A stretch of 64,000 nt of DNA from an uncultured Bacteroidales bacterium (GTDB taxonomy: Bacteria; Bacteroidota; Bacteroidia; Bacteroidales; UBA7960), in assembly GCA_964614525.1 (NCBI GenBank), contig CAZTPA010000003.1, positions 40,136 to 104,135 on the forward strand, read 5' to 3'. The position numbers were made by a program, and so were the translations under genes. Within the stretch, counting starts at the first letter, position 1. Every line of letters begins with the position of its first letter. The notes below the pieces were generated by a model. That model did not search any database. It saw only the letters and a list, made by a program, of their open reading frames with translations, and was not told the DNA's origin. Of the stretch, positions 10,481 through 20,183 are shown piece after piece.

Positions 10481-11821
10481 TTATACGTGTCCCTGAGCAA
10501 TCATTGCATCAGCAACTTTTACAAAACCACCAATATTGGCACCTTTTACGTAATTAGTAAAGTCACCCTCTTTACCATACTTTACGCATGCTTTATGAAT
10601 ATTAACCATTATTGTATGTAGTTTTTGATCTACTTCTTCTCTTGTCCAGGATATTCTGAGTGAGTTTTGACTCATTTCAAGTCCTGATGTTGCAACACCG
10701 CCTGCATTAGCAGCTTTTCCTGGTCCATATAGAATTTTATTTTTTAAGAAAATGCTGACAGCCTCAGGTGTAGATGGCATATTTGCACCTTCAGAAACAC
10801 AGATACAGCCATTGTCAACTAATGTTTGAGCTTCTTCTGCATTTAGTTCATTTTCTGTTGCGCATGGTAGTGCTATGTCAACTTTTTCATTCCATGGTCT
10901 TGCTGTACCATCAACATATTTGCAGGAATATGTGTCTGCATACTCACGAATACGTCCGCGTTTTACATTTTTAAGCTCCATCAGATATTCAAGTTTTTCG
11001 GAATCGATTCCATCTTTGTCATAAATATATCCTGAAGAATCAGAAAGAGTTACAACTTTTCCGCCAAATTCAATAACTTTTTGAGTTGCATATTGGGCTA
11101 CATTTCCTGAACCACTGACTGCAACAGTTTTTCCCTTAAAACTTTCATTTATGGATGCAAGCATCTCTTGTGCAAAATATACACATCCGTATCCCGTAGC
11201 TTCAGGGCGAATTAAACTTCCGCCATATTCTATACCCTTGCCGGTTAATACTCCTGTAAATTCATTCCTAATTCTTTTGTATTGTCCAAACATATATCCT
11301 ATTTCACGGCCGCCAACTCCAATATCTCCGGCAGGAACATCCGTGTTTGGCCCGATATGCTTGCATAATTCTGTCATGAAGCTTTGGCAAAAATGCATAA
11401 CCTCATTGTCAGTTTTTCCTTTTGGGTCAAAATCACTACCACCTTTACCGCCACCTAATGGGAGTGATGTTAAGCTGTTTTTGAAAACCTGTTCAAAAGC
11501 CAGAAATTTAAGAATACCAAGATTTACTGTTGGGTGAAATCTTAGGCCGCCTTTGTATGGCCCAATCGCGCTGTTCATTTCAATCCTGAAACCTTTATTT
11601 ACTTGCAATTCACCTTTGTCATCAACCCACGGAATACGAAACATGATTACTCTTTCAGGCTCTATAATTCTTTCAAGAATTTTTGCAGCCTTGTATTTCG
11701 GATTCTCTTCAATAAAGGGAATGATTGTTTCTGCTACCTCTTGGACAGCTTGGTGAAATTCTCTTTCTGCTGGATTTTTTGCAATTACATAATCCATGAA
11801 TTTTTTTACTTGTGCGTTCAT
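10481..11821 (-). CDS. gdhA: Glutamate dehydrogenase, hexameric Glu/Leu/Phe/Val DH family (paralog 1, E. coli GdhA-like)
   Basis: 446 aa. [16 protein letters not shown] is the catalytic Lys motif, [11 protein letters not shown] is the dinucleotide fingerprint, and PCATENEL and GANMP are also present. Confidence 0.95.
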
Positions 11822-12122
11822 TTTTTTTGCGTTTATTGGTTAGTAAAAAGAAAATTATTGGTTTATTTGTCACAATGTTATTGATAAAATGTGTGGAGTT
11901 GGTTTTTTTTTGAAATAAAAAATAAATTTGTTTTTTCTTGCATATGTCACAAATTATTATATAGCCTTATTGTTGCTTTCAAATTATTAATAATATTTTA
12001 GAGAAATAGTGTGATTTTTGTTTATATTGTGATGTCTTTTGTTAATATGTAATGTAAAGACAATAGTATCGTTATTATGCTATAAATCAGGAAGATAATT
12101 ATAACTAAATTTTTTTATATCA

Positions 12123-18729: not shown

Positions 18730-18845
18730 TTTGATAAAAAGATTTTTTTTAATTGAAAAATAACTATAATTTCGCCCTGTAAATTACAAATTGTTAATAA
18801 ATTAACAAATCACCCTTTTTTACAAACAAATAAATTTTACGCATT

Positions 18846-20183
18846 ATGAATTTAGATAAAATATTATCAGATCTGGAGAACAGAAATCCGGGACAAAATG
18901 AGTTTTTACAAGCAGTAAAGGAAGTTTTAGAAACTATTGAAGACGTAGTTAAAGAAAATCCCAAATATGAAGCTGCAAATATTATTGAAAGAATTGTTGA
19001 ACCCGACAGAGTAATCAAGTTTAAAGTTCAGTGGGTTGATGACAAAGGTCAGGTAAATGTTAACAGAGGTTACAGAGTTCAGTTCAATAATGCTATCGGG
19101 CCATACAAAGGTGGACTTAGATTTCACCCTAGTGTAACTGAAGGCGGACTTAAATTCTTAGGATTTGAGCAAATATTTAAAAATAGTCTTACTACACTTC
19201 CTATGGGCGGTGGTAAAGGTGGTAGTGATTTTGACCCTAAAGGAAAATCACAAGCTGAAATTATGCGCTTCTGCCAGGCTTTTATGGCAGAGCTTTACAA
19301 ATATGTAGGTCCCGATACAGACATCCCTGCCGGTGATATCGGAGTTGGTGGTCGCGAAATTGGTTATATGTTTGGAATGTATAAGAAACTTCTTGGTCAG
19401 CATCACGGTGTATTTACAGGTAAAGGCAGAAATTGGGGAGGAAGCTTAATCCGTCCTGAAGCTACTGGCTTTGGTAATGTTTATTTCGCTGAAGAAATGC
19501 TGAAAACCCGCGGTGAATCAATGAAAGGAAAAATAGTTGCTGTTTCTGGTTTTGGTAATGTATCATGGGGATCTATTATTAAAGCTACACAACTTGGTGC
19601 AAGAGTTGTAACTATTAGCGGCCCTGACGGATATGTTTATGATCCTGATGGTATTTCAGGTGAAAAAATTGACTATCTGCTGGAACTGAGAGCTTCTAAC
19701 CAGGATATAGTTAAACCTTATACTTATGAGTTTCCTAATGCACAATTCTTTGAAGGAAAACGTCCATGGGAAGTTAAATGTGATGTTGCTTTACCTTGTG
19801 CTATTCAAAATGAACTTAACCTTGAGGATGCTAAAAATCTTGTTAATAATGGCGTAATGTGCGTATCCGAAGGTGCTAATATGCCTTGTACTCCTGAAGC
19901 TATGGAGCATTTTCTTAAAAATAAAATTTTATACGGCCCGGGAAAAGCTGCTAATGCCGGTGGTGTTGCTACTTCAGGTCTTGAGCAAACACAAAATGCA
20001 ATGAAACTTAACTGGGAAGCGGATGAAGTGGAAACTAAACTTCATAATATTATGAAAAATATTCACGAAGCTTGTGCCAAGTATGGAAAAGAAGAAGATG
20101 GTTTCATTAATTATGTTAAAGGTGCTAATGTTGCTGGTTTTATTAAAGTTGCCGATTCTATGATTGATCAGGGTGTTATATAA
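18846..20183 (+). CDS. gdhA: Glutamate dehydrogenase, hexameric family (paralog 2, distinct cofactor fingerprint)
   Basis: 445 aa with [46 protein letters not shown] and GANMP. Confidence 0.95.
   Translation: MNLDKILSDLENRNPGQNEFLQAVKEVLETIEDVVKENPKYEAANIIERIVEPDRVIKFKVQWVDDKGQVNVNRGYRVQFNNAIGPYKGGLRFHPSVTEGGLKFLGFEQIFKNSLTTLPMGGGKGGSDFDPKGKSQAEIMRFCQAFMAELYKYVGPDTDIPAGDIGVGGREIGYMFGMYKKLLGQHHGVFTGKGRNWGGSLIRPEATGFGNVYFAEEMLKTRGESMKGKIVAVSGFGNVSWGSIIKATQLGARVVTISGPDGYVYDPDGISGEKIDYLLELRASNQDIVKPYTYEFPNAQFFEGKRPWEVKCDVALPCAIQNELNLEDAKNLVNNGVMCVSEGANMPCTPEAMEHFLKNKILYGPGKAANAGGVATSGLEQTQNAMKLNWEADEVETKLHNIMKNIHEACAKYGKEEDGFINYVKGANVAGFIKVADSMIDQGVI

Follow-up and report, generated by a model that had tools for sequence, protein, structure and literature searches.

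A conserved family of receiver/ATP-grasp proteins, encoded between two glutamate dehydrogenase genes in a Bacteroidales bacterium and very probably coupled to the 2-oxoglutarate/glutamate node

ATP-grasp enzymes of the pyruvate phosphate dikinase (PPDK) class include rifampin phosphotransferase (5hv3, 5fbs), phosphoenolpyruvate (PEP) synthase, PPDK itself and PigC. We analyzed a stretch of 64,000 nucleotides (nt) from an uncultured Bacteroidales bacterium (contig CAZTPA010000003.1; the whole stretch is termed the window), in which two genes for large proteins with an ATP-grasp of this class, here called big1 and big2, lie in tandem between two glutamate dehydrogenase (GDH) genes, gdh1 and gdh2. 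The big1 and big2 proteins have the ATP-grasp class and the GGK, RSS..ED..FAG and Q-x-R motifs in common with the enzymes above, but they lack the swivel domain (PF00391) and the substrate domains of those enzymes. Compared with the characterized dikinase superfamily, two N-terminal receiver folds and a C-terminal domain of 175 amino acids (aa) are found in the big family only.

The arrangement of the receivers is known from PleD-type regulators (also from CheB and PorX), where tandem receivers precede an enzymatic domain and one of them is phosphorylatable while the other is degenerate. The big proteins differ from these in having an ATP-grasp and an orphan domain as output instead of a GGDEF, methylesterase or phosphatase domain. 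They also differ from PleD in domain order, which is reversed with the pseudo-receiver first and the true receiver second. A functional analogy is offered by the PknG-GarA/OdhI system of Actinobacteria, a signaling system dedicated to 2-oxoglutarate/glutamate enzymes. Its targets are 2-oxoglutarate dehydrogenase, the large GDH and GOGAT. It consists of a Ser/Thr kinase and an FHA adaptor, acts by binding of the adaptor and has no homology to the genes described here. The glutamine synthetase adenylyltransferase GlnE, the isocitrate dehydrogenase kinase/phosphatase AceK and the PPDK/PEP-synthase regulatory proteins PDRP/PSRP follow the same logic as that proposed below, i.e., a nucleotide-dependent enzyme, encoded beside a central metabolic enzyme or acting on it, switches that enzyme on or off. 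Their folds are unrelated and none of them is known to have receivers or a PPDK_N ATP-grasp, and modification of GDH is in our case a proposal.

In Bacteroidota, the dominant Gram-negative phylum of the human gut, both ammonia assimilation and glutamate catabolism proceed mainly through GDH. Bacteroidota are not known to possess the classical enterobacterial NtrBC/GlnE logic, and no account of how they switch between opposed NADPH- and NADH-linked GDHs was found in our literature search. A full-text literature search returned no paper on the big family or on its link to GDH, and no characterized homolog was found.

The genes of the locus are, in order:

10481..11821, minus strand: gdh1, 446 aa, hexameric family-I GDH of predicted NADP type (NF006929; fingerprints GSGNVAQYA and VVTLSDSSG)
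12123..15686, plus strand: big1, 1187 aa, with N-terminal module, pseudo-receiver, receiver (Asp438), helical linker, ATP-grasp (Lys629) and orphan C-terminal domain (His1109)
15736..18729, plus strand: big2, 997 aa, paralog of big1 without the N-terminal module, starting 49 nt past big1
18846..20183, plus strand: gdh2, 445 aa, hexameric family-I GDH of predicted NAD type (NF010633; fingerprints GFGNVSWGS and VVTISGPDG)

A preliminary description of this DNA had claimed these four open reading frames (ORFs), as two GDH paralogs around a tandem pair of large genes. All four were found with the same coordinates and strands, and the GDH assignments passed curated NCBIfam cut-offs (gdh1, 766.6 bits against NF006929 with a cut-off of 536; gdh2, 810.3 bits against NF010633 with a cut-off of 743). 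The big1 and big2 proteins aligned over 981 positions (E = 0) with 39% identity, big1 being longer at the N-terminus by about 200 residues. The two GDHs share 62% identity, and each contains the ELFV_dehydrog_N and ELFV_dehydrog domains. The best match of gdh1 in the PDB was the E. coli NADP-GDH (3sbo, 613 bits), whose fingerprints it also has, while the nucleotide domain of gdh2 best matched the NAD-specific GDH of C. symbiosum (1bgv/1aup), the sequences GFGNVaWG and SGPDGY being common to both. These similarities point to gdh1 being of the NADP type and gdh2 of the NAD type. GDHs with dual coenzyme specificity do exist in Bacteroides.

To survey the neighborhood of the large genes, one genome per GTDB species was scanned by an alignment-based method. 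A relative was found in at least 596 species, and the best 80 loci were kept with 10-kb flanks. ORFs were called in these loci and labeled by BLAST, and all 1,014 ORFs were clustered. The preliminary description had let its reading depend on an enrichment of gdh near homologs of the large genes, and gdh was indeed the most frequent neighbor family, being present within 10 kb in 28 of the 80 loci. It was the immediate neighbor in 23 of the 80, and in 20 of the 66 loci where both neighbors were visible. By chance, a gdh gene is expected within ±10 kb in about 1–2% of cases (a 3–5-Mb genome with 2–3 gdh genes). Among the taxa covered were Lentimicrobiaceae, Salinivirgaceae, Rikenellaceae, Saccharicrinis, Paludibacter, Parabacteroides, Phocaeicola and Bacteroides.

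The placement of gdh varied between loci. It was divergent and upstream in 15 loci, co-directional and downstream in nine, and in the B. finegoldii group it was located about 6 kb away in a convergent orientation. A gdh gene on both sides of a big pair was found in the window and in L004, where the order is identical; in L001 the order gdh1-big1-big2 reaches the contig end. Altogether the gdh association holds across at least five arrangements and both orientations. Tandem big pairs were present in 20 of the 80 loci in addition to the window, and single big2-type genes in the other 60. An NAD-fingerprint GDH was found beside a big2-type gene in 20–21 loci and an NADP-fingerprint GDH beside big1 in L001, L004, L014 and the window. 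This apparent pairing by coenzyme type relies on fingerprints anchored to solved enzymes.

Two loci showed further peculiarities. In L072 (407-8175) a single NAD-fingerprint gdh lies between two big2-type genes, which is the inverse of the arrangement in the window. The gdh1-like gene beside big1 in L004 (4640-5886) is split into parts of 194 and 204 aa, owing either to a pseudogenizing frameshift or to an error in the assembly.

The linkage was also found outside the Bacteroidales. Homologs annotated as Lentisphaerota/Victivallales are 66–70% identical to big2. In L085-L087 (3360-6482), L089 (3164-6322) and L090 (3101-6259) the big homolog is divergent from a large GDH of 1040–1052 aa. This GDH contains Bac_GDH_CD and ELFV_dehydrog domains, belongs to another size class and is non-orthologous to gdh1 and gdh2. 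The big gene of L089 and L090 is bracketed by the large GDH and a 445-aa GDH, the latter being split into two ORFs in L089. In L088 (3478-12970), from Victivallales, no gdh is located near a tandem big pair; the pair precedes Pyr_redox_2, multi-Fer4 and FlpD-like genes, which may represent a further redox enzyme partner.

A second enzyme was linked to the large genes in loci that mostly lack gdh. In 18–19 of the 80 loci, korA-korB, encoding the two subunits (alpha and beta) of a 2-oxoacid:ferredoxin oxidoreductase (TIGR03710, 651 bits with a cut-off of 483), directly precede big1-big2 on the same strand. A glutamate racemase gene (murI) is found one gene upstream of korA-korB. The full order in these 18–19 loci of L001-L080, and also in L091 (5095-14432) and L092 (5100-14440), is uppS-bamA-skp-skp-murI-korA-korB-big1-big2; fabD, folE and a PTPS gene come next on the other strand. 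In L091 and L092 korB and big1 are separated by about 30 nt, which suggests that the oxidoreductase and the big pair are co-transcribed. In Bacteroides, an oxidoreductase of this two-subunit type is usually regarded as the 2-oxoglutarate enzyme.

The linkage to GDHs and to a 2-oxoacid oxidoreductase makes "2-oxoglutarate/glutamate node" a safer label than "nitrogen assimilation". The module for nitrogen assimilation that had been proposed earlier is therefore retained with respect to the non-random linkage to gdh, but not with respect to its framing as specific for assimilation, since the oxidoreductase is equally linked and gdh is absent from the 10-kb surroundings of many members. From gene neighborhoods we consider it very likely that the family is functionally coupled to this node.

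The same data were weighed against the view that gdh adjacency is inherited synteny without functional meaning, and that the big proteins serve an unrelated process. The sampled genomes are mostly Bacteroidales, so the loci are phylogenetically non-independent; gdh is absent within 10 kb from the majority of loci, and the flanks of the block in the window hold unrelated genes. Inherited synteny would, however, have had to survive at least five arrangements and both orientations. The association also re-forms in another phylum with a non-homologous GDH size class, the pairing is type-specific, and loci without gdh have another enzyme of the same node as a neighbor. We therefore regard this explanation as quite improbable.

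The domains of the two large proteins were located as follows, residue numbers being those of the protein named:

12195..12635, plus strand: big1-specific N-terminal module (aa 25-171), kept in big1 orthologs and found only at big1 N-termini
13995..15104, plus strand: PPDK_N ATP-grasp of big1 (aa 625-994), E 5.6e-39
15841..16275, plus strand: pseudo-receiver of big2 (aa 36-180), a receiver fold in which an invariant Met102 takes the position of the phospho-acceptor Asp
16282..16725, plus strand: receiver of big2 (aa 183-330), Glu190/Asp191, Asp260 and Lys313 invariant, Ser294 nearly invariant, with a PleD-like tandem REC fold
16768..16998, plus strand: helical linker of big2 (aa 345-421) with weak similarity to DUF5752 (E 8.5e-5) and invariant His370, Phe376, Trp379 and Arg383
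17062..18195, plus strand: PPDK_N ATP-grasp of big2 (aa 443-820), with conserved GGKxRG (Lys447), RSSSxxEDS (Arg538) and QIRP
18199..18726, plus strand: orphan C-terminal domain of big2 (aa 822-997), with invariant GPGRWG...D...W...E and S925-x-G927-x-H929-F-F-x-N933

Invariance was counted in an alignment of 91 sequences including big1, which was also the basis of an AlphaFold2 model of big2 (mean predicted local distance difference test score, pLDDT, 79.5). Pfam identified the ATP-grasp as PPDK_N (PF01326), the E-value for big2 being 1.4e-38. GGK447xRG, R538-SSS-xx-EDS and Q806-I-R808-P were invariant, and we take these to be the nucleotide-site motifs of the PPDK-type ATP-grasp class. The closest solved sequence to the full-length profile was the ATP-grasp of rifampin phosphotransferase (E 6e-6, through the AVRSS..ED..FAG motif), and the best folds in the PDB for the big2 model were rifampin phosphotransferase 5hv3 (E 9e-11), PleD (E ~1e-7) and PPDK 1kbl (E 9e-7).

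Both large proteins gave receiver-domain signal in Pfam, the big2 receiver scoring 34.8 bits against PF00072 (cut-off 30.2). In a profile-to-CheY alignment, the big2 residues E190/D191, D260, S294 and K313 fell at CheY D12/D13, D57, T87 and K109. With this full set of phosphorylation-site residues the second receiver is predicted to be phosphorylatable. The first receiver-fold domain has Met102 at the position of Asp57 and is therefore considered a pseudo-receiver. Receiver folds matched those of PleD, NtrC1, CheB, PhoP and others (TMt up to 0.76 for single receiver domains). The linker reached 21.2–22.4 bits against DUF5752 (PF19027), which is below the cut-off of 23 and covers half of the profile, while one homolog (P0331) reached 25.5 bits. 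Similarity of the linker to DUF5752 is thus likely, and membership borderline. No DNA-binding or other recognizable output domain was found in a Pfam search of big1 and big2.

The N-terminal module of big1 had no match in Pfam. A single marginal match was obtained to the GAF domain of Nlh2 (4g3v, E 0.019 over 37 residues), and a firm assignment to GAF or PAS was dropped on these grounds. The module is possibly a GAF-like sensor, and a sensory role would be plausible. The big1 ortholog of L014 (3205-7095; 1296 aa) has the module duplicated, and that of L004 (6130-9945; 1271 aa) has about 130 extra residues ahead of it. Apparent stand-alone sensor copies were found among database "hypothetical proteins" of 100–250 aa (P0447-P0566) that match the module. 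These were rejected as sensors, as they are really pieces of big1; many are gene fragments resulting from frameshifts in long-read metagenome assemblies, and in L091 the neighboring korA is likewise split. The module is therefore considered specific to the big family.

An invariant signature, GPGRWG...D...W...E...S-x-G-x-H-F-F-x-N...GY, marks the last 175 residues, and its histidine is His929 in big2 and His1109 in big1. By eye ("ILVGPGRWG...SQGTHFF") this region could be taken for a divergent swivel phospho-histidine domain, but tests by sequence, profile and fold all failed. The isolated C-terminus had no match in Pfam, even at E<=10, and a profile of 57 sequences had no sequence match in the PDB. 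The stand-alone domain was modeled with a pLDDT of 87.8 and a pTM of 0.87, and comparison of this model to PDB folds gave nothing significant (best E 0.048, TM at most 0.33). A profile search of 1.84 billion representatives (50% identity) found 2,179 at E<=1e-3 and 569 at E<=1e-30. The domain was located at the C-terminus in 150 of 150 proteins listed, and it followed PPDK_N in all eight variant architectures examined, while their N-terminal parts differed. This indicates a conserved catalytic core consisting of the ATP-grasp and the orphan domain. The invariant histidine is a reasonable candidate for a phosphoryl carrier or catalytic residue.

The names given to homologs in databases include "phosphoenolpyruvate synthase" and "CheY-like chemotaxis protein". 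Together with PPDK_N matches at E ~1e-38, the first of these would suggest that big1 and big2 are genuine PEP synthases or PPDKs. Their domain content refutes this. The swivel domain was found neither by Pfam nor by sequence profile or fold, and the PEP/pyruvate-binding TIM barrel (PF02896) had no Pfam match, with the proteins ending about 175 aa past the ATP-grasp. The closest NCBIfam and PDB relatives of the ATP-grasp were PigC, RedH, PEP synthase and rifampin phosphotransferase, but scores against their models were low: 17–55 bits for PEP-synthase equivalogs (TIGR01418, NF005057 and the NF00488x series) with cut-offs of 598–1063, 16–54 bits for the rifampin phosphotransferase/PigC models NF041857 and NF052631 with cut-offs of 999–1300, and 16–55 bits for all of these equivalogs together with cut-offs of about 600–1350. 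We give this identity practically no chance and regard both database names as misnomers. The earlier opinion that the large proteins are kinase-type sensory proteins rather than metabolic dikinases was borne out by the missing swivel and TIM barrel and by equivalog scores that are ~20-fold too low. We view big1 and big2 as response regulators with a new enzymatic output that are genomically dedicated to a central metabolic node.

The explanation that we favor is a receiver-gated, ATP-dependent phosphotransfer onto the neighboring GDH, with one paralog for each GDH. We give it a probability of roughly 0.3 to 0.4; ATP-driven phosphotransfer, a function of the histidine in it, GDH as target and the pairing of paralogs with GDHs are all inferences. 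In this scheme a kinase or phosphodonor, together with a ligand for the N-terminal module of big1, would switch the receiver. The ATP-grasp would then load a phosphoryl group from ATP, probably via His929 in big2 and His1109 in big1, and this group would be passed to the neighboring GDH and alter its activity. In this pairing big1 would serve gdh1, as the assimilatory enzyme of the NADP type, and big2 would serve gdh2, as the catabolic enzyme of the NAD type; the opposed GDHs would thereby be kept from an NADPH-to-NADH futile cycle. A wider version is more tentative and, taken as a whole, rather unlikely: a new post-translational control system, common to Bacteroidota and Lentisphaerota, in which a receiver-gated ATP-grasp with a histidine carrier domain of new fold would phosphorylate both unrelated GDH size classes and perhaps the 2-oxoglutarate:ferredoxin oxidoreductase.

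A number of observations weigh against phosphotransfer onto GDH. To our knowledge, ATP-grasps of the PPDK class phosphorylate small molecules or their own carrier domain and not other proteins, and we know of no characterized PPDK_N enzyme that does not require a swivel phospho-histidine domain. As this domain was not detected in big1 and big2, their chemistry may differ. The loop holding His929 was modeled with low confidence. There was no gdh within 10 kb in 52 of the 80 loci, including L056, L058, L060 and L064 from Bacteroides. The big1-gdh1 pairing was seen in four loci in all, and in L033 an NADP-type GDH lies beside a big2-type gene. Finally, no kinase family recurs in the sampled neighborhoods that could represent a cognate histidine kinase. 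Orphan regulators are common, so the missing kinase is compatible with big1 and big2 belonging to the response regulators.

In the four Bacteroides loci just named (~5800-9830) the direct upstream neighbor of the big homolog, read from the other strand, encodes a hybrid two-component protein of ~1,300 aa with Reg_prop, HisKA, HATPase_c, REC and AraC domains. This protein may be a phosphodonor candidate, or just the regulator of an adjoining polysaccharide-utilization locus.

The absence of a conserved histidine kinase would be explained if the proteins formed a self-contained phosphorelay, where the ATP-grasp replaces the ATPase of a histidine kinase and phosphorylates the C-terminal histidine, from which the phosphoryl group passes to the receiver aspartate of the same protein or its paralog. 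The output would be the expression or activity of gdh or kor through protein contacts or a partner, without covalent modification of GDH. An invariant histidine and an invariant receiver aspartate are indeed found on one polypeptide, tandem pairs have the sensor-like module on their first member only, and dikinase chemistry, according to textbooks, yields phospho-histidine in PPDK and PEP synthase. However, the C-terminal domain is dissimilar to HPt, DHp and swivel domains, and no DNA-binding or other recognizable output domain was found in the proteins. The single-copy big2-type genes in the majority of loci also mean that a relay between two proteins is not general. This purely inferential scheme appears improbable to us.

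In the main alternative, big1 and big2 would be receiver-regulated enzymes whose substrate is a small molecule of the node, or which produce a signaling metabolite, instead of acting on the GDH protein. The orphan C-terminal domain would then be a substrate-binding or carrier domain, and GDH and the oxidoreductase would be neighbors in a pathway. All characterized relatives of the ATP-grasp have small molecules or glycans as substrates; precedents for an ATP-dependent phosphorylation of this kind are rifampin phosphotransferase, the prodigiosin ligase PigC and the glucan-water dikinase. The apparent korA-korB-big1-big2 operon is pathway-like, and as the GDHs and the KorAB-type oxidoreductase share a metabolite and glutamate racemase is encoded nearby, shared metabolism accounts for the gene linkage equally well. 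On the other hand, tandem receivers and a sensor-like module, here on an enzyme of ~1,000 aa, typify signaling proteins rather than pathway enzymes, and no reaction of the node is known to need such an enzyme. Tandem paralogs with identical catalytic motifs would be redundant for one reaction, and the pairing of paralogs with GDH isoenzymes is easier to understand through protein-protein specificity. We consider an action on metabolites possible, though unlikely.

The non-coding parts of the block were analyzed by a hairpin and terminator scan of positions 9500-21500 and an Rfam search of 9000-22000, the latter giving no family match. The following elements were noted:

10426..10460, minus strand: intrinsic-terminator-like hairpin 20 nt past the gdh1 stop codon, 15 pairs in the stem, 5 of them GC, then a T-run
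11822..12122, no strand: AT-rich divergent intergenic region of 301 nt, common to gdh1 and big1, with presumed promoters
18791..18808, no strand: perfect 8+8 palindrome TTGTTAAT-AA-ATTAACAA, 38 nt 5' of the gdh2 start codon
20205..20235, plus strand: intrinsic-terminator-like hairpin 21 nt past the gdh2 stop codon, 14 pairs in the stem, 5 of them GC, then a T-run

The gene order in the window is gdh1 (minus strand) followed by big1, big2 and gdh2 (all plus strand), with spacers of 301 nt between the divergent gdh1 and big1, 49 nt between big1 and big2 and 116 nt between big2 and gdh2. The preliminary description had placed strong terminators at the outer edges only. This agrees with our scan, where the two longest stems follow the gdh stop codons; terminator-like sites inside the block are weak (5–8 pairs), and the big1-big2 spacer is without a terminator. 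Seven terminator-like sites were observed compared to 6.4 expected, which corresponds to chance, and it is therefore their position and stem length that are informative and not their number. The idea of a single delimited block holds in the sense of a conserved neighborhood, but not in the sense of one transcription unit, as gdh1 is divergent and the orientation of the gdh2-type gene varies elsewhere.

The palindrome upstream of gdh2 is possibly a transcription-factor operator. A conserved operator upstream of gdh genes was looked for and rejected, as 30 other gdh upstream regions share no palindrome. A scan for sigma-70 promoters gave 60 sites compared to 52 ± 7.5 in shuffled sequence and was not used, the consensus being unsuited to promoters of Bacteroidota. 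ORFs of 111–151 aa on the opposite strand inside gdh1, big1 and big2 (11151-11537, plus strand; 15209-15664 and 16687-17022, minus strand) are most likely spurious shadow ORFs.

The genes flanking the block are unrelated to it (polysaccharide synthesis, a phosphodiesterase, a PurM-like gene, prfA and pyrF), and no korAB, additional GDH or additional big paralog was found in the window outside the block. A polysaccharide-biosynthesis cluster occupies 435-10364, 5' of the block, with the gdh1 terminator between the two. The cluster includes a UDP-GlcNAc 2-epimerase gene at 8452-9534; its other ORFs were by eye those of glycosyltransferases, a sugar transferase, an acetyltransferase and a chain-length-determinant-like protein. 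A gene resembling the succinyl-CoA ligase alpha subunit (CoA_binding and Ligase_CoA domains; 25292-26176, minus strand) is found on the downstream side, about 5 kb from the block. Succinyl-CoA is a substrate for reductive 2-oxoglutarate synthesis, and the proximity of this gene may be a coincidence.

Two older observations on GDH control in Bacteroides are in line with the favored explanation. The GDH of B. fragilis is reportedly inactivated in a reversible manner in vivo, and one or more trans-acting genes near gdhA of B. thetaiotaomicron are said to affect GDH activity. In the arrangement of the B. finegoldii type other genes fill the 3 kb downstream of gdh, and the trans-acting factor may therefore differ from the big family, which is a further point against an action on GDH. 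The locus tags BT1970/BT1973, considered for gdh in B. thetaiotaomicron, had no full-text match and were discarded as unreliable; BT1971 is a catalase. If phosphotransfer onto GDH is true, it would account for the decades-old reports of reversible in vivo inactivation of Bacteroides GDH, and the big proteins would represent a new type of response-regulator output as well as a new type of protein kinase.

Altogether, these observations point to a new class of enzymatic output of response regulators, define a conserved orphan domain and correct a pervasive mis-annotation. Single clusters of Bacteroides orthologs at 90% identity contain 2,200–5,000 sequences each, and orthologs are abundant in human-gut Bacteroides, Phocaeicola and Parabacteroides for which genetic tools are available, which makes the hypothesis directly testable. 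The big family is a concrete and widely conserved candidate for the switching of GDHs in Bacteroidota, and if its target is not GDH, it would still mark unknown biochemistry at the junction of carbon and nitrogen metabolism.

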